From the NCBI GenBank assembly GCA_964644695.1, contig CAZXWN010000002.1:248001-312000 (forward strand): a DNA stretch of 64,000 nucleotides, read 5' to 3'. Each line of letters opens with the position of its first letter. The stretch's first letter is position 1. The stretch is from an uncultured bacterium. GTDB lineage: Bacteria > UBP4 > UBA4092. The translations under genes and the position numbers were made by a program. Below the pieces are notes generated by a model. That model was given only the letters and a program-made list of their open reading frames with translations. It searched no databases and was not told the origin of the DNA. Positions 4,735-46,552 of this stretch are shown one piece after another.

Positions 4735-4753
4735 GGGTTACTCCGAGATTAAT

Positions 4754-4783: not shown

Positions 4784-4789
4784 CTGGGA

Positions 4790-27602: not shown

Positions 27603-27793
27603 GGGGGAAAGACTTCCTGGTTCCCAGCCTGCCGTGCTGGAGTGAATGATGATAGCAAGGTCCCGTGCGACAGATGCCTTCGAAATTTGTCAGGTCCGGA
27701 AGGAAGCAGCAATAAGGAGATACATCTGGGTGCCGCGGGTTTCCGGGTTATTAAAGTTCCTTCTCACGGTGGGTTGGGTACCAGGAGGTCCCC
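27603..27793 (+). ncRNA. ffs: Signal recognition particle RNA, extended form
   Basis: Helix-8 core TGTCAGGTCCGGAAGGAAGCAGCA; long closing helix GACTTCCTGG..CCCAGCCTGCCGTG / CACGGTGGGTTGGG..CCAGGAGGTC; canonical position before dnaX. Confidence 0.93.
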
Positions 27794-27847
27794 ATCCGGA
27801 ACATCAGGGTCAAAAATGGCCGTCTTATCCATAGTTTCGAGGTGGAG

Positions 27848-29644: not shown

Positions 29645-29958
29645 ATCTGCATAAATTAATGAAACAGGCGCAGCAAATGCAAAACAAGATTGCCAGCGTT
29701 CAGGAAGAAGTGGCAAAGAAAACTGTGGAAGGTGCTGCAGGCGGCGGTACGGTCAAATGTGTCGCCAGCGGTGATGGAAAACTGGTTTCCATCGAAATCT
29801 CCCCGGAAGTCATTTCTGCGGATGACCGCGATATGCTGCAGGACCTCGTTTTAGCGGCAGTGAACAATGCTCTGGAAAATGCCAAAGCCATGTCTCAGGA
29901 AGAGATGAAGAAAGTGGCCGGCGGCATGAACATCCCGGGCATGGACGGCCTGTTTTAA
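29641..29958 (+). CDS. ybaB: YbaB/EbfC nucleoid-associated protein
   Basis: MKQAQQMQ...GAAGGG...MLQDLVLAAVN. Confidence 0.97.
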   Translation: MNLHKLMKQAQQMQNKIASVQEEVAKKTVEGAAGGGTVKCVASGDGKLVSIEISPEVISADDRDMLQDLVLAAVNNALENAKAMSQEEMKKVAGGMNIPGMDGLF

Positions 29959-29974
29959 TTTATCCTGAATTATT

Positions 29975-30574
29975 GTGTTATACACTCCTGTCATAGAGCG
30001 TCTGGTTAATGAACTTCGACAACTGCCTGGAATCGGTCCGAAATCAGCGCAGCGGTTAACCTATTATTTGCTCAAGCAGGATTCAACCCGGGTACAGGCA
30101 TTGGCGGATTCCATTCAGGGAATCATCGGGAAAATTAAGTATTGTGAGATATGCTGCAATATCACCGAAGATGACCAGTGTTCCATCTGTCGGGATGCCT
30201 CTCGGAATCAGTCCACTATTTTAGTTGTTGAACAGCCCTTTGATATCCTGGCCTTTGAACGGACGGGAGTATTCAAAGGGCTGTATCATTGTCTTCTGGG
30301 TTCACTCTCTCCCATGGATGGGATCACACCGGATCAGTTACGAATCCAGCCCTTAATCAAAAGAGTGGAGTCAGGGACGATCACGGAAGTCATTATTGGG
30401 ACAAATCCCACCTCTGAAGGGGAAGCTACCGGAGTGTATCTTCTCAATCGCCTCAAACCTTATGGTATTACAATCTCCCGGATTGGTGTCGGTATCCCTA
30501 TGGGGGGAGATTTGGAATATACCGATCAGCAAACTCTTTCCCGCGCCTTCGAAGGCCGCCATATCCTTCGCTAA
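29975..30574 (+). CDS. recR: Recombination mediator RecR
   Basis: LPGIGPKSAQR HhH, C4 zinc finger, TOPRIM NPTSEGEAT, GIPMGGDLEY; GTG start. Confidence 0.98.
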   Translation: MLYTPVIERLVNELRQLPGIGPKSAQRLTYYLLKQDSTRVQALADSIQGIIGKIKYCEICCNITEDDQCSICRDASRNQSTILVVEQPFDILAFERTGVFKGLYHCLLGSLSPMDGITPDQLRIQPLIKRVESGTITEVIIGTNPTSEGEATGVYLLNRLKPYGITISRIGVGIPMGGDLEYTDQQTLSRAFEGRHILR

Positions 30575-30784: not shown

Positions 30785-33601
30785 ATGAGTATACCTCACG
30801 AATTAATTGATTTAGTCGATCGCTTTGATCGGAATAAAGAAGATTATAAGTCCAGTGGATATAATGAGACTCAAATTCGCCGTGAATTTATTGATCCATT
30901 ATTTATTTTAATGGGTTGGGATGTTAATAATAAAAATGGATATGGGGAAGCTTATAAAGATGTTATTCATGAGGACTCAATAAAAATTGGTGGAGAAGTG
31001 AAGGCTCCAGACTATTGTTTCCGTATTGGGGGGACACGTAAATTCTTCTTAGAAGCCAAGAAACCATTTGTCAATATAAAGCAGGATATTGGTCCTGCAT
31101 TCCAATTACGTAGATATGGTTGGTCAGCGAAACTGCCAGTTAGTATATTGACCGATTTTGAAGAATTTGCAGTCTATGATTGCAGGATAAAGCCACAGAA
31201 AAACGATAAATCATCCGTTGCAAGGATCATGTATTTTACCTATGACCAATATGTTAATAACTGGGAAGAGTTGAATGGTATCTTTTCTAAAGATGCGGTA
31301 TTAAAAGGGTCTTTTGATAGATTTGTGGAATCCAAGAAACAGAAAAAAGGAACAATGGGCGTAGATGATGAGTTTTTATTAGAAATTGAGTCATGGCGAG
31401 ATGTTCTTGCAAGGAATTTGGCAGTCAGAAATCCAAATCTTACTACCAGAGACTTGAACTTTGCTGTTCATCGTATCATTGATCGATTTATCTTTTTAAG
31501 GATTTGTGAGGACCGAGGAATTGAGAATTATGGTCGCCTTAGAGGGCTCTTAAATGGAGATAGGGTTTATCCACGGTTATGCCAATTTTTCACAGAAGCC
31601 GATGACCGGTATAATTCAGGTCTTTTTCACTTCAATACAGAAAGAGGTAGGGATGAAGTACCTGATAATCTAACCTTGACACTAAATATAGATGACAAGA
31701 TATTTAAAGACATTATTCGGAGTACTTATTATCCGGATAGTCCTTATGAATTTTCTGTATTACCTGCAGATATCCTTGGACAAATTTATGAACAGTTTTT
31801 AGGAAAGGTTATCCGATTAACTGAAGGACATCAGGCAAAAGTCGAAGAAAAACCAGATGTTCGAAAAGCTGGGGGTGTTTATTACACTCCGACATTTATT
31901 GTGGATTATATTGTAAAAAATACTTTGGGTGAATTGGTTAAAGATAAAACTCCTCAGCAAGTATCTAAATTGAAAATATTAGACCCAGCTTGCGGGTCTG
32001 GATCTTTCCTCATTGGAGCCTACCAGTTTTTATTAGATTGGCATAGGGATTGGTATTTCCAGAACAATCCTGAAAAACATCAAAAGGAAATATATAAGGT
32101 CGGATTAAATGACTGGAGATTAACTACCAAGGAAAGAAAAAGAATACTTCTGAATAATATCTTTGGTGTAGATATAGATTCACAAGCTGTCGAAGTAACT
32201 AAGCTGTCGCTTCTTCTGAAGGTCCTTGAAGGAGAAAATGAACAATCAATCAATAAACAGCTCGAATTATTTCATGAACGGGCACTTCCTGATCTCGGGA
32301 ATAATATTAAATGTGGAAATTCATTGATTGGGCCCGACTTCTATGACCAGCAAGAGTTTTTATTTTTGTCTGAAGAAGAAAAATATAGGATAAATGTGTT
32401 TGATTGGAATAAAGAGTTTGAGAATATTATGAGTAATGGGGGATTTGATGCGATTATTGGAAATCCACCATATATACCAATTGAAACTATGTTTGATTAT
32501 GAAAGAAACTATTACCAGCATTTAGTGAATTCTTTGGAAAGAAAGTATGATTCTTCGGTGATTTTTATTGCAGTTTTGGCTCAAAAAGTCGCTAAGAATG
32601 GTTTTCTTGGATTTATATCTTCGCTAACATGGTGGACTGGTGAAAACTATTCCTTGCTAAGGAAATTCTTACTTGAAAAAATTGGTTTTTTGAAGTTTAT
32701 AGATTTACCATTTAATGTGTTTAAAAATGCATATGTTGACACAGGGATATATATATTAACGAAGAAGTCGGTTAAAGAGTATTCGATATATAGATTTAAG
32801 AAGAAAGATAAAATTGACAATTTAGACAATATAAGGTTTGTGTCTATTCCAATCGATTCTATTTCCGCTCCAGATTATAAAATCGTTTTAAACTCTTTGG
32901 CTAAACAAATCATAACTCGTTGTGCTAGTGATAATAAGTTCGTACCTCTTGGTCGCATATCTATCTCTACACAAGGATTAACCGGAAGTAAGTATAAAAA
33001 GTATGATGTAAAAAATGGGGACGAATATTTTGAATATCTAGAAAAAGGTCAGGTTTATCGCTATTGCCAAGAAATTAAAACAATAAAATATGTAAATATG
33101 GAAACACATAAATCACTTATAAAGTATTATCTTGGTGTACCGAAAATATTAATACGCAGACTTGTCAATAGACAAGACCGAATAATGGCTACATATACTA
33201 CTGATACAATGGTATTCACAAAAGATATAAATCCTTTCTTAATAACTGACAAAAGACATGATACCAAGTGTATTTTAGGTATCCTGAATAGTAAACTGAT
33301 ATCCTATTTGTATGTAAATTCATCATCCATTGCTACTAAAGACGATTTTAGACAGACGACTTTAGCTGAACTTAGAAACATTCCTATCCCCCAGAATAGT
33401 GATGATAAAAGATGCGATTCAATAGTCCAGTTGGTAGATAATATGCTAGAGCTAAACAATAAGCTTCATCGGTTTACCACTCCCCATGAATTAAATACAA
33501 TTAAAAGGCTTATGAAAATTACTGATGAGCAAATAGATATGCTTGTTTATGAGTTGTATGGGCTTACTGAGGAAGAAATCAATATTGTTGAAAACCAGTA
33601 A
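30785..33601 (+). CDS. Type IIG (Eco57I-like) fused restriction endonuclease / m6A methyltransferase with C-terminal specificity domain
   Basis: N-terminal NETQIRREFIDP...PDY...EAK nuclease motif; GVYYTP, LDPACGSGSF (motif I), IIGNPPY (motif IV); C-terminal ILNSKL...IDMLVYELYGLT. Confidence 0.9.
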   Translation: MSIPHELIDLVDRFDRNKEDYKSSGYNETQIRREFIDPLFILMGWDVNNKNGYGEAYKDVIHEDSIKIGGEVKAPDYCFRIGGTRKFFLEAKKPFVNIKQDIGPAFQLRRYGWSAKLPVSILTDFEEFAVYDCRIKPQKNDKSSVARIMYFTYDQYVNNWEELNGIFSKDAVLKGSFDRFVESKKQKKGTMGVDDEFLLEIESWRDVLARNLAVRNPNLTTRDLNFAVHRIIDRFIFLRICEDRGIENYGRLRGLLNGDRVYPRLCQFFTEADDRYNSGLFHFNTERGRDEVPDNLTLTLNIDDKIFKDIIRSTYYPDSPYEFSVLPADILGQIYEQFLGKVIRLTEGHQAKVEEKPDVRKAGGVYYTPTFIVDYIVKNTLGELVKDKTPQQVSKLKILDPACGSGSFLIGAYQFLLDWHRDWYFQNNPEKHQKEIYKVGLNDWRLTTKERKRILLNNIFGVDIDSQAVEVTKLSLLLKVLEGENEQSINKQLELFHERALPDLGNNIKCGNSLIGPDFYDQQEFLFLSEEEKYRINVFDWNKEFENIMSNGGFDAIIGNPPYIPIETMFDYERNYYQHLVNSLERKYDSSVIFIAVLAQKVAKNGFLGFISSLTWWTGENYSLLRKFLLEKIGFLKFIDLPFNVFKNAYVDTGIYILTKKSVKEYSIYRFKKKDKIDNLDNIRFVSIPIDSISAPDYKIVLNSLAKQIITRCASDNKFVPLGRISISTQGLTGSKYKKYDVKNGDEYFEYLEKGQVYRYCQEIKTIKYVNMETHKSLIKYYLGVPKILIRRLVNRQDRIMATYTTDTMVFTKDINPFLITDKRHDTKCILGILNSKLISYLYVNSSSIATKDDFRQTTLAELRNIPIPQNSDDKRCDSIVQLVDNMLELNNKLHRFTTPHELNTIKRLMKITDEQIDMLVYELYGLTEEEINIVENQ

Positions 33602-33779: not shown

Positions 33780-35738
33780 ATGAAAAAGACAGTTAAACTT
33801 CTGAATTACACCATCTTATTAAGTGTTTTGACATTGACGTGGTCCTATGGAGATATGGTTACCCTGGTCTCGGGTAATGAGATATTTGGACAGGTGATTT
33901 CTGAGGGAGTTGTTGTGAAACTTCGGACACCAACAGGTTCAATGGATATTCCTAAAAACCGGATCGCCAAAATTGTCCGGGAAAAACCTGATGTAACCTA
34001 TGCCAAATTTGGGAAGAACCTTTTTGACCGTAAGAATTATGTTTTAGCGTTGGATTACTATAAATTAGCTCTTGAACAGGCACCTGGGAATGAGCAATAC
34101 CAATCCATGGTTGCCCTGTGCGAGAAAAGTCTTGCTGATACCAAGACGGCAGAAGTTGAAGGATATATGGCCACCGCTCAGCGCTATATTGAGCAGAACC
34201 GTTTAATGGATGCATTGGATACTTATGACTCCGTAACTGCCATGGGGTTAGGGGAAGCGTGGGACACCCGCGCCAAACAGGGCATGTCAAAAGTTTATTT
34301 ATTACAAACACAGGGATTTCTGGAACCCGCTGATCGCGAAGCCCTGGTCGAGAAAGCGCTTAATGCAGACCCTACAAACCCTGAAGCTCATTACGAAAAA
34401 GGAATGGTCTTATTACAGAAGAAACAGCGGACGGATGCCCTTGAATCTTTTGAGCTGTCTGTCAATCTCGACCCGAATTTTGCCAAGGGTTTTAAAATGC
34501 TTGGGACTCTATATTTTGAGGATAAGAATTATCTAAAGGCCTCAGAAAATCTTGAGAAACTGAAAGCACTTTCTAAGGATTTATTCTCCAGCATGAAAGT
34601 GGCTTTGGTGACTTGTTATACAGAACTGGGGACTAAATCCTTCCAGGCTCAGAATTATGATGAAGCAAATCTCTGGCTTGAAAAAGCTATTGAGCTGGAT
34701 CCTAACCAGAACTGGCCTGTGTTATGGCAGACCAAATATCAACTTCGAAAAGCGGAAACCAGTCCTGATAATGCGGAAGACCAATTCAGCCTGGGGTTGT
34801 GGTGTTTGGATAAGAAGATGGACCAGGAAGCTCTGGAACATTTTAAAACTGCATATGCCGTTCAACCGGGGATGTATAAAGCTCGCCAGAAAATCCGTGA
34901 AATCACAGACAAATTTGCTTCAAGCCTTTATCAAAGTGCCGTTGCAAATTTGAACAGTCGAAATTATCAAGGTGCCATTACCGGATTCCAGCAATTAGCT
35001 CAGCAGTATCCGGACAGTTCTTATACACCGGATGCAAAACGGCTGGTGACTGCCACTCGGGAACAATGGGCGGAAATCATCTTCCGGGATTCCAAAGCTG
35101 CCTATGATGCAAAATATTATGATCGTGCATTGATAGGTTTCAAGAGAATCGTTGATGAGTTCTCTGATACAAACCGGTTTGTGGATGCCCAACGATTCCT
35201 CTCCCGTACTCGGACTTTAGTAAAAGAAACCGATACAGAAGTGGGTGAGCGCCAGCAACAAATGACTAATATTGATGAGATGATAGCCTCTTCCTATGGC
35301 AATGACAGTATTGCCTGGACCCAGATTAAAGGCTTATCCAATCTCACTAATCAGGCCTTGGAACGGGCACTGATGAACAGGACCCCACTGGAAAAGAGAT
35401 TAATGAGAGACAATCTCGATAAAGTGATTTACCTGTTTTATGATACCGACAGAGGCATTGATCGGTTGCGGCCCATTGCTATCCGGAATCGGCTTCCCGT
35501 AGGAGACCGTTCTAAAGTCCGGAATGATTCTGACTACCAGAAAATTCTTAAGTTGACGCTGATGATTCTCTTATCAACCGGTGAGGATTACCAGAATGCC
35601 TGGTTGGAATTGGCCCCATATTTTGGAACAAGCCGCAGTGAAGTAGAAGATAATCGGAGCCGATTTGGTGAAGAAACCCGTCGACTTCTGGATGATAACG
35701 CCGGAGAAGTTTATCAATTATTAAATTTACGCCGTTAG
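33780..35738 (+). CDS. Secreted tetratricopeptide-repeat protein with a BamD/YfiO-like TPR region
   Basis: Signal-like N-terminus; multiple TPR units (ALNADPTNPEAH, AIELDPN, YPDSSY). Confidence 0.85.
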   Translation: MKKTVKLLNYTILLSVLTLTWSYGDMVTLVSGNEIFGQVISEGVVVKLRTPTGSMDIPKNRIAKIVREKPDVTYAKFGKNLFDRKNYVLALDYYKLALEQAPGNEQYQSMVALCEKSLADTKTAEVEGYMATAQRYIEQNRLMDALDTYDSVTAMGLGEAWDTRAKQGMSKVYLLQTQGFLEPADREALVEKALNADPTNPEAHYEKGMVLLQKKQRTDALESFELSVNLDPNFAKGFKMLGTLYFEDKNYLKASENLEKLKALSKDLFSSMKVALVTCYTELGTKSFQAQNYDEANLWLEKAIELDPNQNWPVLWQTKYQLRKAETSPDNAEDQFSLGLWCLDKKMDQEALEHFKTAYAVQPGMYKARQKIREITDKFASSLYQSAVANLNSRNYQGAITGFQQLAQQYPDSSYTPDAKRLVTATREQWAEIIFRDSKAAYDAKYYDRALIGFKRIVDEFSDTNRFVDAQRFLSRTRTLVKETDTEVGERQQQMTNIDEMIASSYGNDSIAWTQIKGLSNLTNQALERALMNRTPLEKRLMRDNLDKVIYLFYDTDRGIDRLRPIAIRNRLPVGDRSKVRNDSDYQKILKLTLMILLSTGEDYQNAWLELAPYFGTSRSEVEDNRSRFGEETRRLLDDNAGEVYQLLNLRR

Positions 35739-35805: not shown

Positions 35806-36240
35806 ATGGAAACAACTGACACGACAAGATTCGTAAACTTGAATACGTATGCTGAAAGTCGCCCTGTTGAGGGTGATATAGTGATGGTATTGGATGGTCG
35901 TCATGAACAGCGTGGTATTAAACTCATCTCCTCTTACAGCCGTGCCATTCCCCGGTATTCAATTCATGAATTAATTGCCACCGATGAACGGGATAAAAAA
36001 CCGGGTGATACCCTGGACCGTATTTCGTATTTAGCTTTTTTTGAAGTAGTTGCTGGAGGATGTTTACTGGTGGGGCAAACTGTCAACATCGGGGGGCTCC
36101 CTGTGGGACATATTATTGGTTTTGATGAAACCCATGAACCGAATCATCTGAATATCATTATTTCAGTGTCAGAAAGAAAGACCGGACGAGAATTAGATCT
36201 CCATCCAGGATTTGGCGTCCGTTTTGAACTGCAGCGATAA
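35806..36240 (+). CDS. Uncharacterised beta-rich protein (recalled as DUF6917-like)
   Basis: Clean ORF; SRA...IHELI, YLAFFE and GFDETHEPNHLNI motifs. Family name is from memory only. Confidence 0.65.
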   Translation: METTDTTRFVNLNTYAESRPVEGDIVMVLDGRHEQRGIKLISSYSRAIPRYSIHELIATDERDKKPGDTLDRISYLAFFEVVAGGCLLVGQTVNIGGLPVGHIIGFDETHEPNHLNIIISVSERKTGRELDLHPGFGVRFELQR

Positions 36241-36317
36241 CCCTCAATAATTATTGGGGATAACGGGCCCCAGGATTACCTGTCCCGTAAATCGTGATAG
36301 AAGAAAGGGTTGTATTT

Positions 36318-37778
36318 ATGTCGTTCAAATATCGGTTTCAGATGTACAAAGAGTTACACAAAAATCTACCATCCATTTATGCGGATGCCCGGAAGTATGC
36401 GGATGAAATTGGAATCACCCCGGAGATGAAGGGGAAAGTTGGATTAACTGGAGCTGTTTCCAGTTGTCATGCCTTATTATCCAAAGAAGTAAGTCAGGCG
36501 ATGGATGATGCATCCCGGAAAGTTATTGAGAACAAATTTCTCGTCGAAGACATTCGGGAAATTGTGAAAGATGTTTACGGGGATGAATATGATGCTGCCC
36601 CCGTCAATACCTGTGAAGCGGCATTATGGGTCAGTTTTGATTGTCTATTTTCACCTCCTATGCAAGGCCGTGGCGATAGTTATCGTGCCCGGTATATTGC
36701 TCCCTATGAACGGCATTTACATCATCAAGGTTCTTATGGACGGCCTTTCCCGGGCAGATATAAAGACTTATTTGCCGACAGAGGTGTGACTGCGGGTGAA
36801 TTAGGTTTTAATGGAAAACGATTGGATCATGTGGATTCTGTGTTTGTAAAGATGGCTGGTGCTGATTATACAAATCATGGTATCAAAGGCCATCCTGCTG
36901 TTCTTCTGGGTGGACATAAATGCAAGGAGACATTGGAATCCATTGAGAAAACTGCAGAACGTCATGCTGACTCTTTGACTGGATTTACTTCTCTGGCTTA
37001 TGACACCAAAGGGTATGGTTATGGTGAGAAAGATGCCAATAATACTCCCTTATTCCAACAGGGTATTGCGGCTATTGCAAAAGAATATGGTGTTCCCTAT
37101 GTTGTCGATAATGCCTGGGGTACTCCTTTTACCGGAACAGACCCGCGCAAGATTGGTGCAGATGTGGTTTGTTATTCTATGGATAAGAGTGCGGGTGCGC
37201 CGACGGTTGGTTTGATTATTGGTAAGGAAGATGCTTTAGTCCCAATTCGTCGTGCATTAGGGTATCACTCAGACCGTTCTGGTGCAGGATTTTCTTATGG
37301 TAAGGCAGCATTTGTAGCCAATGATCCTGGTAAGGAAGCACTGGTAGGTTTGATTGCTGCGCTGAAAGTGTTGAAAGATAACCCCACGAAGATGCTGAAG
37401 CCGGTTGAACAGATGGCTCAAATTTGTCGTGAAGAATTTAAAAATCTCCCGGCCCGGTTTGTAAATGATATTGATATCAGTGTCAGTCAGAACTCACTGG
37501 CTGTTGAAGTCAATTATGAACGAACTTGGAAAAATGGACAGATGGGTATTCCTATTTTTGCTATTGAAGATATGTATTCCGGAACGAATATTTTCCAGGC
37601 GGGTATGATGCAAATGGGTATTATTCCTACGATTGCATATGATGCCAATATTTACATTTCTCTCGGATTGGGTACACTTGATGAAGACGGTAATTTGATT
37701 GAAGATGTGGCTCGTAAAATCGTCAAAGCCCAGGTCGGATTAATGAATATAACCTGCAAGTATGCCGGTGTTATCTAA
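36318..37778 (+). CDS. Fold-type I PLP-dependent enzyme, SelA/DgaE-like
   Basis: VVDNAWG (PLP Asp) and GADVVCYSMDKSAGAPTVGLIIGK (Schiff-base Lys). Start placed at ATG 36318. Confidence 0.78.
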   Translation: MSFKYRFQMYKELHKNLPSIYADARKYADEIGITPEMKGKVGLTGAVSSCHALLSKEVSQAMDDASRKVIENKFLVEDIREIVKDVYGDEYDAAPVNTCEAALWVSFDCLFSPPMQGRGDSYRARYIAPYERHLHHQGSYGRPFPGRYKDLFADRGVTAGELGFNGKRLDHVDSVFVKMAGADYTNHGIKGHPAVLLGGHKCKETLESIEKTAERHADSLTGFTSLAYDTKGYGYGEKDANNTPLFQQGIAAIAKEYGVPYVVDNAWGTPFTGTDPRKIGADVVCYSMDKSAGAPTVGLIIGKEDALVPIRRALGYHSDRSGAGFSYGKAAFVANDPGKEALVGLIAALKVLKDNPTKMLKPVEQMAQICREEFKNLPARFVNDIDISVSQNSLAVEVNYERTWKNGQMGIPIFAIEDMYSGTNIFQAGMMQMGIIPTIAYDANIYISLGLGTLDEDGNLIEDVARKIVKAQVGLMNITCKYAGVI

Positions 37779-37796
37779 TCAGGAGGATTGTAGTTT

Positions 37797-38186
37797 ATGA
37801 CGACTAAACGTGTGATTGATACAGAAAAAGCTCCCAGTGCTATCGGTCCATATTCACAGGCAATTAAGGCCGGGGGATGGATTTATACTGCAGGCGTTAT
37901 TCCTCTTGATCCTGCCACGGGTCAAATGGTTGAAGGCGATATTCAGGTTAAGGCTCACAGAGTCTTGGACAGTTTGAAAGCAATTATTGAATCTGCTGGT
38001 GCCAGTATGTCTGATGTGGTTAAAACAACCATATTTCTTAAGGACTTGAAGGATTTTGTGGCGGTGAATGAAGTCTATAGCCAGTATTTTTCTGCTCCTT
38101 TTCCTGCACGATCTACGGTTCAGGTTGCCATGCTGCCTAAAGACGCTGAAGTTGAAATTGAAGCCATCGTTTATCACCCTGAATAA
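37797..38186 (+). CDS. ridA: RidA family enamine/imine deaminase
   Basis: APSAIGPYSQA, VVKTTIFL, FPARSTVQV..LPK..VEIE (catalytic Arg present). Confidence 0.95.
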   Translation: MTTKRVIDTEKAPSAIGPYSQAIKAGGWIYTAGVIPLDPATGQMVEGDIQVKAHRVLDSLKAIIESAGASMSDVVKTTIFLKDLKDFVAVNEVYSQYFSAPFPARSTVQVAMLPKDAEVEIEAIVYHPE

Positions 38187-38215
38187 TCTGTTTACACCTC
38201 CTTTGGGGGAAGAAT

Positions 38216-38449
38216 ATGTCCAGTGCTAAAGACCGGATAATGGATGCGATAGACATCCAGAGTTTTTTGTTCTGTAACAGTGAAAAAGAAGCTCGAACCC
38301 TCATCGACAGTCTGATGCAGGAACTGGGTTTGGGACGATATGTTATTGTTTCGTTGGAATTTAATGGCCCGGGTGCTAATTTTCACGCCCGGGCCTATCT
38401 TAATAAACCCGGGGACACTTATTCCTGGTTGAAAGGGGGAATAGTATGA
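38216..38449 (+). CDS. Small protein resembling the aminomutase (KamE/OraE) dimerisation domain
   Basis: RBS GGGGAAG; ATGA overlap with the next gene; beta-alpha-beta-beta pattern DAIDIQSFL..EARTLIDSLMQELGL..VIVSLEF..GANFHARAY. Confidence 0.6.
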   Translation: MSSAKDRIMDAIDIQSFLFCNSEKEARTLIDSLMQELGLGRYVIVSLEFNGPGANFHARAYLNKPGDTYSWLKGGIV

Positions 38450-40269
38450 AGATACTTCTGGCCCCTTTAGATCCTGTCCATGATGCCGGGTTAAAACTCA
38501 TAAAACGGAAATTGGAAAAGCTGGGATATGAGTGTTTGTTGTTGCCACCCGATATTACAGTTGAGGAAATTGGTGAGACAGCTATTCATGAAAATGTAGA
38601 TTTGATTTTTATCAGCCGAACTGTTGGATATGGGGTGGAACAGTTATTTGCCCGAGTTCGACAGGTTTTGGAGCAGCAGGGTATCTTTGGCAAAATTCGA
38701 ATTGCCATAGGTGGAATGGCCGTAACGGATGAGTTGGCTAAATCTCTTGGATTTGAAGCGGGTTTTGGGCAAAATACCCGTGTTGAAGAAATTCATGCCT
38801 TTATTGAACAAAATCCAGATTTGGCGATATCTGTTACCAGTCCTGTAAAAAATAAACCTGAATTTCCCTCGAAATTTACCAACAAGATAAAGGATTCCAC
38901 GACACAAAAGTATCTAGACATCATTGTTGATGGAATATTAGAGTGGTCTTTACGGAAGGTTTCTCCTGGGACTCGGAGAGCTAGGATAACCGAAAGGCAG
39001 CTTCAGGAAGTAAAAGGTTCAGTTGAAGAATATACAGCAATGCCGTTTACCCGAGAATATTTGTCTCAGTGTGATGAAACCGTTGCTGACTTTTTTCAAA
39101 AGGGTGATTACCCTGCTTATGTTCGATTGATTAAGCGAGAAGAAATATTTTCGCTTCAGGAAAAAATAGCTGAATCAAAAGTTCATCTTCGGCCAAGGTC
39201 GTTGCAACATATCCGTAAAAAGCCACTAGTATTCTGTCAGTACGGGACAGGGTGTCCTATGATGGATGCTCTTCATATTAAAGTTTGTGAAAGCTGGGGT
39301 GCTGATGGTGTTCTCCATTTTGACCCGGCCTGGGGTGCACGTACTGAAGGTTTATTGGATGGCCTACTGACAAATTCTACCGATGGTACTCCAGTGACCT
39401 ATGCGAATTTATCTTTGATAAAAAGTGCCTTGGAAGATTCTACACTTTGGTCTGTACGTTCTCATCGGGGATTAAATACTCCCGAAATTACAGTGTTGGC
39501 CGGGTTCTTGGGTGCTGATCTAACTAAAATAAATATTCCATATGGTTCTCTGGCGGGTGGAACCGATCCTGCAAGATTGACTATTGATGGTGTGGAATCT
39601 ATCAAAATTGCTGCGCGATATCGGATGCCATTTGATATTCCAACAAATGAAGAATTGGCTGGAGTTCCTCCATATAAAGCTTTTGCCAGCATGCTTATTA
39701 TGGCTTGGTTGGGTGTAAAGTTGGGGGCACAGCCCATCTTGAAACCACTGGTATGTCATGGTCCGTATATTATGGTTCAGGGATACATGGAGCAGGATTA
39801 TGTGGACTATAACGTAGCTAAAATAACGGCATTACAACAGCTGGCTGATTTTCCAATTTGGCCGGGTGAGCCTATTGGTTTTATGACACACACCGAGGAA
39901 AAAACGCAATCAGCTACGGCAACAGCCTTTCATGTGGCTTTATGCAGTAGCCTAAATTTGGAAGCGGTAACGATTGCTTCAACAGATGAAGCTTTTTCTC
40001 GCGGATCAATTACTGCTGGAGCCAGAGCCAGTTCTTTAAAAGCAATTGAAGAGTCATTCCGAGTTTTAGGGCTGTCAAGTATTAATCCTGGCCCAATGGC
40101 CTCTGTATGGAAAAATGAATTGGTTGAGAAAATCAATGAAACGCTTAAGGACGTAGCTGAATCCCCTTCTTTTGTGGATGCATTGTATCAGGGATTGTTG
40201 GGTAGTAAAGAAGATGGTGTTTATCCTGGCAGAGCAGGCCGAAACAGCGTCGAAGAGGTGACTGATTAA
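38446..40269 (+). CDS. Cobalamin-dependent aminomutase-like protein (N-terminal B12-binding domain, C-terminal TIM-barrel-like domain)
   Basis: DPVHDAG...ISRTV...IGG...LGFEAGFG B12 motifs; C-terminal GTG..D...WGADG, DGTPVT, GLNTPEI and PYGSL segments align by eye with KamD/OraE barrels. Confidence 0.75.
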   Translation: MKILLAPLDPVHDAGLKLIKRKLEKLGYECLLLPPDITVEEIGETAIHENVDLIFISRTVGYGVEQLFARVRQVLEQQGIFGKIRIAIGGMAVTDELAKSLGFEAGFGQNTRVEEIHAFIEQNPDLAISVTSPVKNKPEFPSKFTNKIKDSTTQKYLDIIVDGILEWSLRKVSPGTRRARITERQLQEVKGSVEEYTAMPFTREYLSQCDETVADFFQKGDYPAYVRLIKREEIFSLQEKIAESKVHLRPRSLQHIRKKPLVFCQYGTGCPMMDALHIKVCESWGADGVLHFDPAWGARTEGLLDGLLTNSTDGTPVTYANLSLIKSALEDSTLWSVRSHRGLNTPEITVLAGFLGADLTKINIPYGSLAGGTDPARLTIDGVESIKIAARYRMPFDIPTNEELAGVPPYKAFASMLIMAWLGVKLGAQPILKPLVCHGPYIMVQGYMEQDYVDYNVAKITALQQLADFPIWPGEPIGFMTHTEEKTQSATATAFHVALCSSLNLEAVTIASTDEAFSRGSITAGARASSLKAIEESFRVLGLSSINPGPMASVWKNELVEKINETLKDVAESPSFVDALYQGLLGSKEDGVYPGRAGRNSVEEVTD

Positions 40270-40312
40270 TAGATAATTTGAATCTTTAGTATGATTAATC
40301 TGGTATTTTTCT

Positions 40313-40350
40313 TGTCAGCTGTTGGATTTGTTCCAATAGCTGACAGTTTT
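40313..40350 (+). terminator. Probable terminator closing the B12/PLP operon
   Basis: TGTCAGCTGTTGGA-TTTGT-TCCAATAGCTGACA-GTTTT. Confidence 0.7.
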
Positions 40351-40477
40351 ATAAGAATAGCGTGTTTACCTTTTGTGCCTAATTGGTGGACACCCCTGAT
40401 CTAAAAGGTGATTTATTATCACTTATGAAGGTAGAAATTTTTACTAACAATATATAAGCTTTGTTAAACTTGAAAAT

Positions 40478-41203
40478 ATGAATATTCATGTTGAGCCAAG
40501 TATGTGGTTATTGTTATTGAAATTATCAGCGTTATCGGGTTTATTAATGCTTGATGCCGCAATGGTAGGGCAATGGATGTTGGCATACCCTATTTTTGCT
40601 GCACCTTTGATAGGGTTTTTATTCGGACAACCTTATGCAGGTTTTATTATAGGGATACTCTTTCAGCTGTTTTGGTCCAACAAATTACCGGTTGGAGTGT
40701 CTTCTCCACCGGAGACTCCTTTGCTGGCGATTGTGGCCATTGTTTGTTATGTGTTGTCCTCTCATTTGGGTGCAATGAGCTTATATTCTCCATGGATATT
40801 GCCCCTATTGTTAATCAGTCTATCTGGAGGAGTGCTAGGTGGTTATTTAACAGTCTGGATTCGGACTTTTAATAATCATTTAGCAGCCTGGGCAGATAAA
40901 CAGGCTGATGCTCTGAATGTGATGGCATTGAATGTCATGCCCCTGGGTGCTCTTATCATGGGATGGGTCTTATATGGAGGACTTGTATTTCTTCTGGGAG
41001 GAGTATTCCTTTTACTCAGGACCTATGTTTCTTTAGATGTATTGTCATTGCACTATACCCGTCTATATGTCTGGATTTTGGCTGCATTAGGATTTGCTGC
41101 GATAGTGGAATTATTTGAAGTAACCAAAAGATACCGTTGGTTGTTTTTTGGATTAGGTGCAGGGTTAATTGTAGGATTATTGGCTCGCTGGTTGCGGGGA
41201 TGA
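40478..41203 (+). CDS. PTS mannose/fructose/sorbose family IIC component
   Basis: LDAAMVGQWMLAYPIFAAPLIG, QLFW..LPVG..PPE; hydrophobic. Confidence 0.85.
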   Translation: MNIHVEPSMWLLLLKLSALSGLLMLDAAMVGQWMLAYPIFAAPLIGFLFGQPYAGFIIGILFQLFWSNKLPVGVSSPPETPLLAIVAIVCYVLSSHLGAMSLYSPWILPLLLISLSGGVLGGYLTVWIRTFNNHLAAWADKQADALNVMALNVMPLGALIMGWVLYGGLVFLLGGVFLLLRTYVSLDVLSLHYTRLYVWILAALGFAAIVELFEVTKRYRWLFFGLGAGLIVGLLARWLRG

Positions 41204-41206
41204 AAA

Positions 41207-42022
41207 ATGACTAAAATATCCAAATTTACATTATTCCGGGTAGCATTTAGAACACATCTAATGTTATCTATGATGAACTACCAGCGGATGTTAAATTTGA
41301 GTTTTTTGTGGGCTTTATTACCAGTCTTTCAGAGATTTAATTTATCCCATGATCGCTATAAGGAAGTTCTTAAACGACACTTGAATTTTTTTAATGCGCA
41401 TCCCTATATGTCTGGAATTGTGTTGGGTATTATGGCTGCCCATGAAGAAAAGTGGGTTCAGGAAATTGACCCTGAAAATCAAAAGAGAATTGCATCCGTA
41501 ACGGAATCTCTTAGAAAAGGGTTTATGGGACCTATGGGCGCTTTAGGCGATTCCTTCTTTTGGCAAAGTTGGCGTCCGTTTTGCGGGATTATTGCTATTT
41601 TGCTGAGTGTATTACTCTTGCCGGATGTGTATACGGCTGGAGTTGGCATCCTTTTTTCTCTTTTACTGTATAATGTAATTCACGAATATGTTATATTTCG
41701 TGGCGTATTTTCGGGTTATCGTTTGTCAGATGAAATGATTCGCACGATTCAACAATACAATATCCCGAAACTTAACGATAAGATAAAAAATGCCGGCACT
41801 TTTATGGGCGGCATGGTGATAGGAGTGTTATCTTTGGCCACTTGGCTGGGTCCTGTATGGATACCTACTTCACTCATTATGAATTCATTAGCCCGTATTA
41901 GTGTACTTGGACTAGCATCTATCGCATTTATTTTTGGGATGCATAAAGGTTGGTCTATGACCCAATTATTCTTAGTTGTGTTGGGTGGAATGGCATTAAT
42001 TGATTTGATTCTCTGGTTTTGA
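41207..42022 (+). CDS. PTS mannose/fructose/sorbose family IID component
   Basis: NYQRM, RHLNFFNAHP, MGPMGALGDSFFW. Confidence 0.9.
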   Translation: MTKISKFTLFRVAFRTHLMLSMMNYQRMLNLSFLWALLPVFQRFNLSHDRYKEVLKRHLNFFNAHPYMSGIVLGIMAAHEEKWVQEIDPENQKRIASVTESLRKGFMGPMGALGDSFFWQSWRPFCGIIAILLSVLLLPDVYTAGVGILFSLLLYNVIHEYVIFRGVFSGYRLSDEMIRTIQQYNIPKLNDKIKNAGTFMGGMVIGVLSLATWLGPVWIPTSLIMNSLARISVLGLASIAFIFGMHKGWSMTQLFLVVLGGMALIDLILWF

Positions 42023-42032
42023 AAGGGTAATT

Positions 42033-42320
42033 ATGGCATCGGCAGAGAAAAACCTCACTATTATCAATGAACTAGGGTTGCATGTGCGACCTGCAGGGAT
42101 GATGGTGAAGGTTGCCAATCGGTTTAAATCAAAAATTGTTTTAGAAAAAGATGAAGATAAGGTGGATGCTAAATCTATCATGGGTGTTATGATGTTGGGG
42201 GCATCCAAAGGAAGTATAATCAGAGTGCATGCTGAAGGTGAGGATGCCGAAGAAGCAGTGCGAGCTCTGGAAGAGTTGTTTGAAAATGGTTTTGGTGAGT
42301 TGGAAAGTTGCGGGGGATAA
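42033..42320 (+). CDS. ptsH: Phosphocarrier protein HPr
   Basis: GLHVRPA (His15) and DAKSIMG (Ser46). Confidence 0.96.
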   Translation: MASAEKNLTIINELGLHVRPAGMMVKVANRFKSKIVLEKDEDKVDAKSIMGVMMLGASKGSIIRVHAEGEDAEEAVRALEELFENGFGELESCGG

Positions 42321-42323
42321 ACC

Positions 42324-44054
42324 GTGAGTGTCCAGGGTATTGGAGTATCTCAAGGAATCATCGTAGGTCGTGTTTTTTTACTTGAAAGAGAAGGTCTTAA
42401 CACGGTTAGGCGGGATATACCTGCAGATAAAGTGAATTCAGAAGTTCTTCGATTTCAACATGCCATACAGAAAACTAAGAATCAGTTAAAGAAGTTTCGC
42501 GACAAAATAAAAAGTGAGTTAGGGGATTCTCACGCTACCTTATTCGACAGTCATGCCTTAATCTTGGATGATCCAATGTTTTTGGATCCTACTATCCAGA
42601 TGATTAAAAATGAGAAAATAAATCCTGAACATGCTGTCCATATCGTCTTTCTTGATTATATTGAAAAACTGGAAAAGTTTAATGATCCCTATCTGAAGGC
42701 CAGAATAGCTGATTTTCGTGATGTGGGTCGCCGATTGTTGTTAAACTTGGCTGGGATCGAGAAAAATCCACTTGCTAAACTGGAAGAAAAAGTCATCGTT
42801 GTTTCATTTGATTTATCACCTTCAGAAACAGCTGCCATGGATAAAACAAAAGTGATTGGGTTTGTTACTGAGTCTGGCAGCAGGACATCTCACACAGCTA
42901 TTATGGCAAAAGCACTAGAAATTCCAGCTGTTGTCGGTGCTCAGGGTATAACAAAAACAGTCCGAAATGGTGATGTGATTATTCTTGATGGGACGCATGG
43001 AACGGTAATTATTAATCCAGACAGAGAGACTCTCAAAGAATATCTTGCTGCGCAGAAAAAGAGTACTGTTACTGATAAGGAATTGGATAATCTAAGGAAA
43101 CTCTCAGCCCAAACCACCGATGGAATTCAAATACAATTGGCAGCTAATATCGAATTGCCTGATGAAGTGGAACATGTGAAACAGTATGGTGGAAAAGGAG
43201 TTGGGCTTTTTCGAACAGAATTTCTTTATTTATATAACACCACGTTGCCTTCAGAAGAGTTCTCCTTTAAATCGTATAAGCAGGTTGTAAAGAGTTTTGC
43301 TCCAGAGCCAGTAACAATCCGAACTTTAGATATTGGTGGAGATAAGTTTGTTTCTCAGTTGAATTTGCCCTCGGAATTAAATCCATTTCTAGGCTTACGT
43401 GCGATTCGTTTGTGTTTGCAAAGGCCTGAGTTGTTTAAAACTCAGTTAAGAGCCATCTTGCGTGCCAGTATATTCGGAAATGTGAAATTGATGTATCCAA
43501 TGATTTCTGGCTTAGATGAGTTACGCCAAGCAAATGCTATTTTGGAAGAAACAAAAGCAGAATTGAGACAACAAGGAGTTCCTTTTAAAGAAGATATTCC
43601 TGTAGGAATAATGATCGAAATCCCCTCTGCTGCGATAATTTCAGATGTGTTAGCCAAAGAAGTAGATTTTTTTAGTATTGGTACAAATGATTTAATTCAA
43701 TACACTTTGGCTGTAGATCGTGGGAACGAGAACGTTGCCTATCTCTATGAACCTTTACATCCATCTATTCTTCGACTTTTAAAACTAATTATTGAGTCAG
43801 CACATCGAGGAGGAGCTCGAGTAAGTCTGTGTGGTGAAATGGCTGGAGACCCTGATTTTACCCCAATACTACTGGGTTTGGGTATTGATGAACTCAGTAT
43901 GGCCCCTCCTGCTATTCGTGGTGTGAAGATGAAAATACGATCCATATCCATGGCGGATGCGCATCAACTATCTAATGAAATCATGGAATTGAATTCAACG
44001 GACGAAATTCGTCAGCATTTAAATCAGTTTCATTCAAAGAATATCCGGAAGTAG
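42324..44054 (+). CDS. ptsI: PTS enzyme I (PEP-protein phosphotransferase)
   Basis: GSRTSHTAI, GLFRTEF, RTLDIGGDK, NPFLGLRAIR, SIGTNDLIQY, CGEMAG. Confidence 0.97.
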   Translation: MSVQGIGVSQGIIVGRVFLLEREGLNTVRRDIPADKVNSEVLRFQHAIQKTKNQLKKFRDKIKSELGDSHATLFDSHALILDDPMFLDPTIQMIKNEKINPEHAVHIVFLDYIEKLEKFNDPYLKARIADFRDVGRRLLLNLAGIEKNPLAKLEEKVIVVSFDLSPSETAAMDKTKVIGFVTESGSRTSHTAIMAKALEIPAVVGAQGITKTVRNGDVIILDGTHGTVIINPDRETLKEYLAAQKKSTVTDKELDNLRKLSAQTTDGIQIQLAANIELPDEVEHVKQYGGKGVGLFRTEFLYLYNTTLPSEEFSFKSYKQVVKSFAPEPVTIRTLDIGGDKFVSQLNLPSELNPFLGLRAIRLCLQRPELFKTQLRAILRASIFGNVKLMYPMISGLDELRQANAILEETKAELRQQGVPFKEDIPVGIMIEIPSAAIISDVLAKEVDFFSIGTNDLIQYTLAVDRGNENVAYLYEPLHPSILRLLKLIIESAHRGGARVSLCGEMAGDPDFTPILLGLGIDELSMAPPAIRGVKMKIRSISMADAHQLSNEIMELNSTDEIRQHLNQFHSKNIRK

Positions 44055-44097: not shown

Positions 44098-45480
44098 ATG
44101 AAAAATAAGCTCTGGGAGGGTCGTTTCTCCAAACCTGCAGATCCTCAAGTGGAGAGATTCACCGCATCTATTGGCTTTGATAAGCGGCTTTATCCTTATG
44201 ATATTGAAGGTAGCATGGCTCATGTTCAGATGCTGGCCAAGCAAGAGATCATTAAACAGTCCGAATGTAAACAAATTTTAAAAGGGTTGACTCAGATTTT
44301 GAAAGAATTGGATAAAGGTCAATTCCAGTTTATTCATAATGATGAAGATATCCATATGGCAATTGAACGTCGTTTGCATGAAATTATTGGTGCTGTGGCT
44401 GGCAAGATGCATACAGCTAGAAGCCGCAATGATCAAGTGATTTTGGATGTTCGATTATTTCTGCGTGATATAACCGCACAGGTTATTCAGCATATCAGTG
44501 TCTTACAGATGGCGCTTGTTGACCAGGCTGAAAAAAACAAGAAGGTTATAGCTCCTGGTTTTACTCACATGCAGCATGCACAGCCCATCATGTTATCCCA
44601 TCATTTCATGGCCTACTTTCAGATGTTAGAACGAGATTATGAGCGATTTTCTCAAGCCTATGAACGTATAAATGTGCTGCCGTTAGGTGCCGGTGCTATG
44701 GCTGGGACGACTTTCTCTATTGATCGGCATTATGTTGCAAAGTTGTTGAGTTTTCCTAAGGTTAGTGAAAACAGTATGGATACTGTTTCTGACCGTGATT
44801 TCGTTCTGGATTTCCTATCCGCCGCTGCAGTTTTACAGATGCATTTATCTCGAATGGCTGAAGAACTAGTATATTGGTCAACGATGGAGTTCCGGTTTAT
44901 CAAGTTGCCCGACGAATTTTGTACAGGCAGCTCCATAATGCCACAGAAAAAGAATCCTGACGTAGCTGAATTAACTCGTGGTAAAACCGGTCGTATCTAT
45001 GGAAATCTAATATCAGTCCTCACCACAATGAAGGGATTACCTCTTACATATAACAGTGATATGCAGGAAGACAAACCTCCTCTCTTTGATACTATTGATA
45101 ATATTCTCCCCTGTTTAGCTGTTGTTGCAGGGTTAATCAAGGGATTAACTGTTCGTGAAGATATTGTGAAGAAATCTGCCAAAATGGGATATATTACGGC
45201 TACAAATCTGGCAAATTATTTAGCAGAACGAGGCATTCCTTTCCGTGAAGCACATTTCATAGTGGGGTCTATTGTGAAACATTGTGAAGATAAAGGCATT
45301 GAGTTGGAAGAATTGGATTTAGCTGGATATCAAGCCTTCTCGAACAAATTTGAAAAAAATCTCTATGATGTATTAACCTTGGATTACAGTGTGAAGTCCA
45401 TACGGTCATATGGTGGAGCAAGTCCGGACTCAGTACAAAAGCAAATCAAAACTGCTCGTGAGATTCTAAAAAAACGGTAA
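44098..45480 (+). CDS. argH: Argininosuccinate lyase
   Basis: LWEGRF, HTARSRNDQ, GFTHMQ, GSSIMPQKKNPD. Confidence 0.98.
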   Translation: MKNKLWEGRFSKPADPQVERFTASIGFDKRLYPYDIEGSMAHVQMLAKQEIIKQSECKQILKGLTQILKELDKGQFQFIHNDEDIHMAIERRLHEIIGAVAGKMHTARSRNDQVILDVRLFLRDITAQVIQHISVLQMALVDQAEKNKKVIAPGFTHMQHAQPIMLSHHFMAYFQMLERDYERFSQAYERINVLPLGAGAMAGTTFSIDRHYVAKLLSFPKVSENSMDTVSDRDFVLDFLSAAAVLQMHLSRMAEELVYWSTMEFRFIKLPDEFCTGSSIMPQKKNPDVAELTRGKTGRIYGNLISVLTTMKGLPLTYNSDMQEDKPPLFDTIDNILPCLAVVAGLIKGLTVREDIVKKSAKMGYITATNLANYLAERGIPFREAHFIVGSIVKHCEDKGIELEELDLAGYQAFSNKFEKNLYDVLTLDYSVKSIRSYGGASPDSVQKQIKTAREILKKR

Positions 45481-45544: not shown

Positions 45545-46534
45545 TTATACGAATGGAAGTTGGATGGGTTTACCTGTCTCAGCAGATTTATATGCGCCAA
45601 GAGCTAATTCCATGGCAGCCATACCATCTTCTCCTGAGATGAAAACGGGTTTATCGTTTTCAACAGAATCAATGAAAGAGGCTACGAGACCTGCATCCGT
45701 GTTGGAACCCCAGTATTGATAACGCATGGAGGTATCCTTAATACTGTAAAGGTTAAACTTCTGGTTAAACATATCAACATTTACAGCACCTTTGGTTCCT
45801 AGAATACGCATGGTGACATCACCCCACGTTGGGTAATATTTGGGGTTGCGTGACCAACTGGGATCCAGAGAGCATATGATATTCTTTTCCATTTTCATGG
45901 AAAGAGTACCACAGTCGTCACATTCAAGTTCCGGATGGAATTTTTTGTCAATCTCAGCATATACTTCAGTGAAATTGGCTCCTGTGAACCAGCGAATCAA
46001 ATCAGCAACATGGACGGTATGGTCCATGACTGCACCACCACCCGATAATGCTTTATCAACAAACCAGCCACCTGGCATAGAACCACGGTTTGTACCTGCA
46101 ATAGCAATAATGTCTCCCAGTTTGCCATCAGCCACTAATTGCTGGGCACGCATAACGGCAGGGGAGAACCGACAGGGAAATGCGGTCATCAATTTAACAT
46201 TATTTTTCTTACAGACATCAATCATGTCTTGTGCGTCTTCCATGCTGACTGATATGGGTTTTTCACACATGACATGCTTTTTTGCATTAGCTGCTTTGAT
46301 AGTGACTTCTTTGTGATGAACATTTGCTGTGGTGACAACCACGGCATCTACTTTGGACAGAAGCTCATCTATATCACGGAACCAAGGTTTCTGAATGATT
46401 TCAGAGACTTTTTTTGCGCGTTCTTCGTTATCATCCCAGAAGCCGACAAAATCAACATTTTTCAAGAGTTTCAGGCCATGAGCATAACCACCTGCATGCA
46501 TATGGGCGAAACTTAATACACCTGCTTTGACCAT
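45545..46534 (-). CDS. Gfo/Idh/MocA family oxidoreductase
   Basis: SFAHMHA variant N-terminus, HVMCEKP, GGGAVMDHTVH. Confidence 0.92.
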   Translation of the reverse strand: MVKAGVLSFAHMHAGGYAHGLKLLKNVDFVGFWDDNEERAKKVSEIIQKPWFRDIDELLSKVDAVVVTTANVHHKEVTIKAANAKKHVMCEKPISVSMEDAQDMIDVCKKNNVKLMTAFPCRFSPAVMRAQQLVADGKLGDIIAIAGTNRGSMPGGWFVDKALSGGGAVMDHTVHVADLIRWFTGANFTEVYAEIDKKFHPELECDDCGTLSMKMEKNIICSLDPSWSRNPKYYPTWGDVTMRILGTKGAVNVDMFNQKFNLYSIKDTSMRYQYWGSNTDAGLVASFIDSVENDKPVFISGEDGMAAMELALGAYKSAETGKPIQLPFV

Positions 46535-46552
46535 TGTCAGAATCTCCTCTCG

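Follow-up and report, generated by a model that had tools for sequence, protein, structure and literature searches.

What would a bacterium do with five closely spaced genes that combine a B12-binding protein, a pyridoxal 5′-phosphate (PLP) enzyme and a RidA-type deaminase, and do they belong to one of the pathways in which such enzymes are already known? The genes in question lie at positions 35,806 to 40,350 of a 64,000-nucleotide stretch of DNA, called the window here, from an uncultured bacterium of the UBP4 lineage (UBA4092; assembly GCA_964644695.1, contig CAZXWN010000002.1, positions 248,001 to 312,000 of the forward strand). We think it probable, if only just, that they form one operon with two interdependent modules, one a rearranged isomerase of the aminomutase lineage and the other a deaminating module, which together serve an undescribed pathway for an amino compound. 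All five open reading frames (ORFs) are present on the plus strand, and the domain calls agree with the close, co-oriented set that the original prediction had picked out from the letters of the DNA:

35806-36240, plus strand: DUF6917 protein, 144 amino acids from an ATG (a TTG lies at 35803)
36318-37778, plus strand: fold-type-I PLP enzyme, 486 amino acids from an ATG behind a GAAAGGG ribosome-binding site
37797-38186, plus strand: RidA, enamine/imine deaminase, 129 amino acids (TIGR00004, PF01042)
38216-38449, plus strand: putative small mutase subunit, 77 amino acids, with a predicted-structure match to the KamE N-terminal domain
38446-40269, plus strand: putative mutase (B12 protein) of the adenosylcobalamin (AdoCbl) type, 607 amino acids, with PF02310 and a predicted KamD-type barrel
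40312-40352, plus strand: intrinsic terminator, a 15-bp stem with a 5-nucleotide loop (40312-40346), then TTTTAT

The intergenic gaps are 77, 18 and 29 nucleotides, and the last two genes share the four nucleotides ATGA (ATG at 38446, TGA at 38447-38449), the coupling noticed earlier. The longest ORF of the PLP enzyme begins with a GTG at 36294. The terminator hairpin, which had been placed at 40313, has a minimum free energy of -24.2 kcal/mol (z -6.0), and none of 200 shuffled sequences folded equally well.

Folds and domain order of the putative mutase

The 607-residue protein consists of a B12-binding Rossmann domain (residues 1-124), a linker and a predicted TIM (triosephosphate isomerase) barrel of the KamD type (about 149-607). 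PF02310 recognizes the Rossmann domain at 36.5 bits (cut-off 32.1), and the motif of the cobalt-ligating histidine is present: the string D9-P-V-H12-D is invariant in the family, D13 included, as are K135 and K137 in the linker. Between the Asp and the His there is one residue more than in the DxHxxG motif that is classic for B12 proteins. An AlphaFold2 model of the protein made with 25 homologues (pLDDT 83.9, pTM 0.80) has KamD of lysine 5,6-aminomutase as its top Foldseek match (1xrs_A, E 8.5e-16). Structural comparison with VIA also gave KamD (8t0v_A) at Z 32.0, with a root-mean-square deviation (rmsd) of 3.0 Å and 17% identity over 389 aligned residues that join model residues 149-607 to chain residues 12-504. 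Next came OraE of D-ornithine 4,5-aminomutase and GlmE of glutamate mutase at Z 25.5-25.6, with 348 residues aligned for GlmE, and then methylmalonyl-CoA mutase at about 17-19. When a profile of the Rossmann domain was searched against the PDB sequences, KamE was the best match (1.8e-16), ahead of OraE (2.1e-10) and GlmS (1.4e-4).

The 77-residue protein had no family match in the domain-library scans. Its AlphaFold2 model (pLDDT 84.3) is a small β-α-β-β unit for which the top seven Foldseek rows and the top six VIA rows are all aminomutase chains, with VIA aligning it to residues 13-91 of KamE (8t0v_D; Z 6.8, rmsd 3.4 Å, 68 residues) and to residues 498-580 of OraE (Z 6.7). At these modest Z values, it appears to correspond to the N-terminal domain of KamE. 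The assignment is persuasive because the domain found is exactly the one that is absent from the 607-residue protein, and because of the ATGA coupling and the constant adjacency of the two genes. A match to BurrH that the 77-residue profile produced against the PDB sequences (2.7e-7) is an artefact, being the sum of 15 weak repeat matches.

Judged from the two predicted folds, the two genes would therefore hold all three parts of KamD/KamE, cut and joined differently. KamD-KamE (1xrs, 8t0v, 9q1a; reactivase KamB/KamC) has the same barrel, B12 Rossmann domain and N-domain-like part, whereas in the window pair the N-domain-like part is a protein of its own and the barrel carries the Rossmann domain at its N-terminal side. 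OraS-OraE (3kow, 3kp0, 3kp1) likewise has the barrel, the Rossmann domain and an internal domain like the 77-residue protein, but relative to OraE the domain order in the window family is reversed and the stretch that bears Lys629 is missing. No counterpart of OraS was identified, and the 77-residue model aligns with the internal OraE domain, not with the OraS chain. GlmS-GlmE (1cb7, 6h9e) also joins an AdoCbl Rossmann domain to a TIM barrel and, like the window enzyme, has no PLP tether; its match is weaker than that of KamD, however, and it has no partner like the 77-residue protein. The structural matches of both models thus back the earlier idea of a mutase resembling KamDE and OraSE. The pair is best described as a domain-permuted relative of the B12/PLP aminomutases that probably acts as an AdoCbl-dependent radical isomerase.

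The pair is nevertheless distinct from the enzymes that the curated models describe. The 607-residue protein reaches 37.8 bits where the KamE model (NF052385) requires 280, and 36.2 bits where the OraE equivalog (NF040743) requires 800, and PF09043 (Lys-AminoMut_A) was not listed for it at E <= 0.01 in the Pfam scan. The genes kamA, kdd and kce of the kam cluster are absent from the window, and the original prediction had already set the gene set apart from both the kam and the ora clusters. A search of the full-text literature, with subscription journals and supplements outside its scope, found no description of the family or the cluster, and none of an already characterized pathway onto which the cluster would map.

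The proposed deaminating module and its association with the mutase

The second module would comprise the DUF6917 protein, the PLP enzyme and RidA. The PLP enzyme matches Aminotran_5 at 27.5 bits (cut-off 21.5) and the "DgaE family" model TIGR01437 at E 3.7e-9, with 36 bits against a cut-off of 385, and it lies below both the DgaE equivalog NF047797 (20.7 versus 600 bits) and SelA (TIGR00474; 19.3 versus 267.9 bits). Lys290, in Y-S-M-D-K-S, is presumably the PLP lysine and, like Asp264, is invariant. In a profile search of the PDB sequences the lysine region aligned with DgaE 7lc0 and with an O-acetylhomoserine sulfhydrylase, which agrees with the SelA/DgaE-like character first ascribed to the enzyme even though the family cut-offs are not reached. 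The DgaE/SelA-related enzymes (7lc0, 8t7j) have this region in common with it, in the form Y-S-x-x-K-A-x-x-A-x-T-S-G-x-I-x-G. In contrast to DgaE, the window enzyme is about 120 residues longer and travels with a B12 mutase, not with a phosphotransferase system (PTS) and an aldolase. The family has a mean column identity of 75% across phyla and a highly conserved, His-rich N-terminal half.

The 144-residue protein was called an unknown in the original prediction. It is not nameless, as it matches PF21891 (DUF6917), a domain of unknown function, at 146 bits (cut-off 27) over positions 2-126 of the 127 in the profile. We found no paper on "DUF6917" in the full-text literature. Its profile had no match among the PDB sequences at E <= 10, and its matches in the ESM Atlas were DUF6917 clusters only. 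H54-E55 and the motif G-x-D-x-T-H-x-P-N-H-x-N are invariant in 25 sequences. We read the protein as an accessory of the PLP/RidA module. A 301-residue ORF at 4001-4906 of a locus labelled Desulfovirgula thermocuniculi (L053) fuses DUF6917 (residues 16-140) to a YjgF/Rid domain (152-290). A predicted complex of the PLP enzyme with DUF6917 scored 0.00 against a mark of 0.32, a result which was obtained without controls and is evidence neither way. The third protein of the module is a canonical RidA (TIGR00004 at 176.6 bits, cut-off 106.25; PF01042 at 146.4 bits).

The association of the two modules was followed through the homologues. A collection of 185,579 species, one genome each, gave 410 pattern matches and 337 stretches that encode relatives, of which the best 80 loci were used as the neighbourhood set. 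Neighbouring genes were counted over the 50 loci whose flanks reach 7 kb or more upstream and 2 kb or more downstream, and the 77-residue gene over the 76 that extend at least 300 nucleotides upstream. By the labels of the records, the cluster occurs in about nine phylum-level groups: Verrucomicrobiota-type, Bacillota, Atribacterota, Thermotogota, Sumerlaeota, KSB3-type, Spirochaetota, UBP4 and some bins with odd labels. Cultivable carriers are among them, with records under the names Tepidanaerobacter, Pseudothermotoga, Desulfosporosinus and Heliorestis. The 77-residue gene lies directly upstream of the mutase gene in 73 of 76 loci and is missing in L021, L035 and L036. The PLP enzyme gene is found at 46 of the 50 flanked loci, with DUF6917 upstream of it at 39 and a Rid-family gene at 21. 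Where the PLP gene is not at the locus (4 of 50), it is elsewhere in all four genomes, one copy being cut by a contig end. In L035 and L036, both labelled Thermovenabulum, the PLP gene ends about 35 nucleotides before the mutase gene and the 77-residue gene was not found.

Three genomes of the same class (G001, G003 and G004) keep the order DUF6917, PLP enzyme, RidA, 77-residue protein and mutase, with identities to the window proteins of 79, 59 and 59% for the mutase and 78, 69 and 70% for the PLP enzyme. This conserved order and the recurrence of the pairing in distant phyla mean that the operon arrangement exceeds chance. Presence and absence in whole genomes follow the same pattern. Of 41 sampled genomes, five carry all three of a full-length mutase, the PLP enzyme and DUF6917, and the other 36 carry none of them; in the class of a Tepidanaerobacter-labelled genome (Bacillota), 29 of 34 genomes have both mutase and PLP enzyme and the remaining five have neither. 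With the four genomes above whose PLP gene lies away from the locus added, the two proteins were concordant in all 79 genomes compared (both in 38, neither in 41), unlinked cases included, and the original suggestion that homologues should co-occur is borne out. One such case is G032, which carries the DUF6917-PLP pair on a different contig from the 77-residue, mutase and KamB-like genes. Relatedness inflates such counts, but the pattern still holds in several phyla and for unlinked genes. As a separate observation, a gene of the PBP4B/AmpH-like serine DD-peptidase family follows the unlinked pair in G032 (L096, contig C8, 6401-7603), and a 39%-identical homologue is present in the window's genome (C1:123056-124207).

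The window mutase shares 69-73% identity with proteins labelled Verrucomicrobia, against 59% with the proteins from two genomes of the class to which it belongs, and the corresponding values for the PLP enzyme are 72-76% and 69-70%. The higher identity to Verrucomicrobia than to the organism's own class suggests horizontal transfer of the operon. Near-identical DNA was found in sludge, biogas-fermenter or digester, and wastewater metagenomes from several studies.

The genes that surround the cluster elsewhere were also informative. Right after the mutase gene, 46 of 72 loci have a KamB-type helper gene (NF052386, 241 bits against a cut-off of 210), and such a gene is present at 35 of the 50 flanked loci, which is a further likeness to KamD-KamE, but it is absent from all 19 loci of the clade formed by UBP4 and the Verrucomicrobia-type records. 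A GIDA-like FAD oxidoreductase is present at 31 of the 50 loci. Over the whole set of 80, a regulator with helix-turn-helix and FCD domains occurs at 33 loci, a permease with 12 transmembrane segments and no family at 19, a ProC-like NADP oxidoreductase at 10 and an FAD/NAD electron-transfer subunit at six. The regulators seen in other phyla are of the GntR/FCD and YheO types. Importers of the Opp/Dpp, Liv and TAXI-TRAP types also occur near the cluster elsewhere, as do sets of flavoproteins resembling D-amino-acid dehydrogenase, an Asp/Glu-type racemase and peptidases. In nine Verrucomicrobia-type loci a gene resembling a thiamine-dependent 2-oxo-acid E1 stands between the DUF6917 and PLP genes. 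We read these neighbours as those of an operon for regulated uptake and breakdown with a 2-oxo acid as its end product.

In the pathway we envisage, an amino acid or diamino acid taken up by the cell would first have an amino group moved to the adjacent carbon by the mutase. Compounds of the diaminopimelate, lysine, ornithine and 2,4-diaminobutyrate types are candidate substrates, possibly derived from cell walls or peptides. The PLP enzyme would then eliminate the amino group from its new position, and the enamine or imine so formed would be hydrolysed by RidA to a 2-oxo acid and ammonia. The lysine region of the PLP enzyme resembles those of DgaE and γ-eliminating enzymes. An enamine intermediate is consistent with the canonical RidA in the operon, the DUF6917-Rid fusion in one genome and the E1-like gene in nine loci. 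With a short diamino acid the net products would be a 2-oxo acid and two molecules of ammonia, with neither a redox step nor coenzyme A, which would suit the minimal form of five genes.

The type of substrate is hinted at by genes of diaminopimelate and lysine metabolism, which stand beside the cluster in four lineages. In 13 loci of the Verrucomicrobia-type clade the mutase gene is followed by one for LysA (equivalog, 471 bits), and DapF (equivalog, 248 bits) directly precedes the 77-residue gene in six loci of three phyla. In one Atribacterota locus a Ddh equivalog (287.7 bits, cut-off 180.6) and an enzyme of the D-cysteine-desulfhydrase family come before dapF; in another, a DapA-like gene (233.8 bits, cut-off 206) lies between the DUF6917 and PLP genes. 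We regard this adjacency as a pointer to a diamino-acid substrate and not as proof of diaminopimelate.

The missing PLP anchor and competing explanations

Several observations weigh against the two-module reading, and the most serious concern how the mutase would hold PLP. In the known aminomutases a lysine of the Rossmann domain, Lys144 in KamE and Lys629 in OraE, forms the internal aldimine with PLP, according to a review (PMC3958899). In the sequence of KamE (1xrs_B) this lysine lies 11 residues past the cobalt-binding histidine. The residue 11 past His12 in the 607-residue family is a leucine, the nearby K20 varies between K, R and N in 25 aligned sequences, and a conserved PLP-tethering lysine was found in none of those 25, so that the family has no counterpart of Lys144. 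An HHalign comparison with three OraE sequences puts a four-residue gap at the D-I-K-H of OraE. The invariant R341 also falls at Ser162 of OraE, the position that meets the pyridine nitrogen, and therefore the enzyme may not use PLP at all. The remaining difficulties are of other kinds. The match of the 77-residue model to KamE is modest, at Z 6.2-6.8 compared with 5.7 for the first unrelated chain. The operon RidA is the only RidA-like gene that tblastn found in the window's genome and could therefore be a housekeeping gene, and a RidA is absent from 29 of the 50 loci with enough flank. The window form has no KamB-type helper, flavoprotein or dedicated importer; for the helper, NF052386 gave no match at E <= 1 in the window's genome, which is 98.7% complete. 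Diaminopimelate and lysine genes, finally, adjoin the cluster in only 21 of 80 loci, and five Verrucomicrobia genomes have one lysA each above the cut-off, which lies beside the cluster in four of them and elsewhere in the fifth.

The placement of R341 and of the other barrel residues uses OraE numbering, transferred through an OraE orthologue and an HHalign alignment of only 7.5% probability, and every correspondence given here is to be read at that level. The orthologue comes from the Bacillota, where PF09043 identified an OraE-type frame in three of five cluster-bearing genomes and gave no match at E <= 0.001 in the other two; the frame served solely as an OraE sequence for the mapping. Y366 corresponds to Tyr187 of OraE, which stacks on PLP, and N401 to the Asn at the PLP phenol, beside His225; K361 corresponds to His182 and E232/E233 to Glu81, and Arg297 of OraE, which binds the substrate carboxylate, is not kept. 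Against the PLP-contact set of KamD/KamE (Tyr263, Asn299, Ser238 and a phosphate loop of Arg184 and Gly187-Ser189), Y366 and N401 again align, R341 again stands at the serine and the loop is unaligned. Five short motifs (GAD...DG.P.T, PE, Y, D..xN and YP.R.G) occur in the same order in the family and in OraE. These shared motifs and the Tyr and Asn positions suggest that the barrel may still bind PLP.

The explanation that competes best with the two-module operon is an isomerase which works without PLP, either as a carbon-skeleton mutase like glutamate mutase or by some other 1,2-shift, on an amino-dicarboxylate that the separate PLP enzyme would supply or consume. We consider it unlikely. It would fit the lack of a counterpart for the tethering lysine, the position of Arg341 at Ser162/Ser238 and the strong match of GlmE, and the invariant barrel arginines R299, R338, R341 and R377 would suit the binding of carboxylates, which glutamate mutase also binds with arginines. 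However, KamD stands about six Z units above GlmE as well as OraE, the Rossmann domain is closest to the aminomutase subfamily, the 77-residue partner resembles a domain of KamE and OraE, the helper in other phyla scores as KamB, and Tyr366 and Asn401 align, at low confidence, with residues that contact PLP. The pathway partner of glutamate mutase is methylaspartate ammonia-lyase, which was not seen at the window cluster.

We give still less credence to a biosynthetic or modifying system that makes or converts a diamino acid of the diaminopimelate or lysine type, for example for the cell wall. Such a role could explain why LysA, DapF, Ddh and DapA-like genes adjoin the cluster in four lineages, why the adjoining lysA is the sole one above the cut-off in four of five Verrucomicrobia genomes and the cluster dapF the sole copy in a Pseudothermotoga genome, and why almost every genome of one Bacillota class (29 of 34) has the cluster. 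On the other hand, three genomes have another dapF besides that of the cluster, the cluster is patchily distributed (5 of the 41 genomes sampled; 337 stretches among the 185,579 species), and the importers, GntR/FCD and YheO-type regulators and amino-acid-dehydrogenase-like flavoproteins found around the cluster elsewhere speak for uptake and breakdown. The window's genome also has its own lysA, dapF and dapA together on contig C1 and a Ddh above the cut-off on C2, and DapL-like matches were all below the cut-off. No lysine step is missing, and with a complete Ddh-type pathway elsewhere the operon is therefore not needed for lysine synthesis; as a filler of a gap in that pathway the cluster was rejected for this genome.

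A DgaE-like route for amino-sugar acids, in which the adjacent PTS would import and phosphorylate the substrate, the PLP enzyme deaminate it and the B12 enzyme be auxiliary, is very improbable: the man-family IIC, IID, HPr and enzyme I genes behind the operon (40478-44054) and the alignment of the PLP-lysine region with DgaE 7lc0 recall the dga operon, where a man-family PTS accompanies DgaE, but a strong terminator and a 208-nucleotide gap separate the operon from the PTS genes, these adjoin the cluster only in the window and its family relative G001 (1 of 80 loci), G003 and G004 lacking this arrangement, the sole IIA-man and IIB-sorbose genes of the window's genome are on another contig (C1:75481-76355), the PLP enzyme falls far short of the DgaE equivalog, and no partner of the KDPG (2-keto-3-deoxy-6-phosphogluconate) aldolase type was seen. 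The amino-sugar acids that had been offered as alternative substrates are accordingly unsupported.

We return to the reading of a rearranged aminomutase-lineage isomerase coupled to a deaminating module, which also allows a bolder and rather doubtful extension. To our knowledge, no third B12/PLP aminomutase besides the lysine and ornithine enzymes is known. The window enzyme might be such a third kind, holding PLP in the barrel, with the invariant Lys361 five residues before Tyr366 and with Arg341 at the pyridine nitrogen as in fold-type-III enzymes. With diaminopimelate or another diamino acid of the cell wall as its substrate, and with the PLP lyase, DUF6917 and RidA as partners, it would then provide a missing anaerobic and redox-neutral route to a 2-oxo acid and ammonia.

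Expression, surroundings and significance of the cluster

A metatranscriptomic library from what is probably the source sample contains a 159-nucleotide contig identical to positions 39736-39894, within the mutase gene; carry-over of DNA is possible, and the same run did not cover the remainder of the window. A promoter scan was uninformative, with 38 sites against 30.9 ± 5.6 expected, and a search with Rfam found a riboswitch nowhere in the window, its sole match being the signal recognition particle (SRP) RNA. The features around the operon are as follows:

27654-30574: small SRP RNA (65 bits), dnaX, a 105-amino-acid ORF and recR, an ordinary housekeeping block
30785-33601: fused restriction-modification enzyme of the Eco57I/MmeI type, 938 amino acids, with a GC content of 33-39% against about 43-46% around it
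33780-35738, plus strand: protein with tetratricopeptide repeats (TPR families), 652 amino acids, 65 nucleotides upstream of the operon
40478-44054: man-family PTS components IIC (241 amino acids) and IID (271 amino acids), divergent and behind the terminator, then HPr and enzyme I
44098-45480: argininosuccinate lyase (argH), after the PTS genes
45545-47542, minus strand: two tandem oxidoreductases of the GFO/IDH/MocA family, 329 amino acids each
47684-49762: gene with an ATP-cone and a partial match to anaerobic ribonucleotide reductase, beside the GFO/IDH/MocA genes

The TPR gene may be co-transcribed with the operon. Its place in front of the cluster is conserved within the class only: G001 and G003 have it there too, at 48% and 28% identity, and in the neighbourhood set it appears at one locus of 80 (L015, the record of G001). 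Two TPR genes lie downstream of the KamB-like gene in the unrelated genome G032 (L014, C1, 5959-7892), which may be chance in genomes rich in such genes. The restriction-modification stretch is likely to be an acquired island. IIC and IID are the only mannose-family membrane parts in the window's genome. Three loci of the Verrucomicrobia-type clade, L016, L025 (labelled Acidobacteriota) and L033, have an argH homologue (45-46% identity) less than 8 kb from the cluster.

Control of the known aminomutases rests on the lysine that tethers PLP, and the window family is without that lysine. A widespread, rearranged relative that lacks it would mean either that the two vitamins can be coupled in another way or that the enzyme catalyses a new B12 reaction. 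Nor is the family a rarity: 337 stretches were found with each species represented by one genome, and 29 of 34 genomes in a single Bacillota class carry it. The mutase and the orphan PLP enzyme make a well-defined two-enzyme core that can be put to the test, and the window's cluster, at five genes the smallest form seen and free of a helper ATPase, would be a convenient starting point for its reconstitution.

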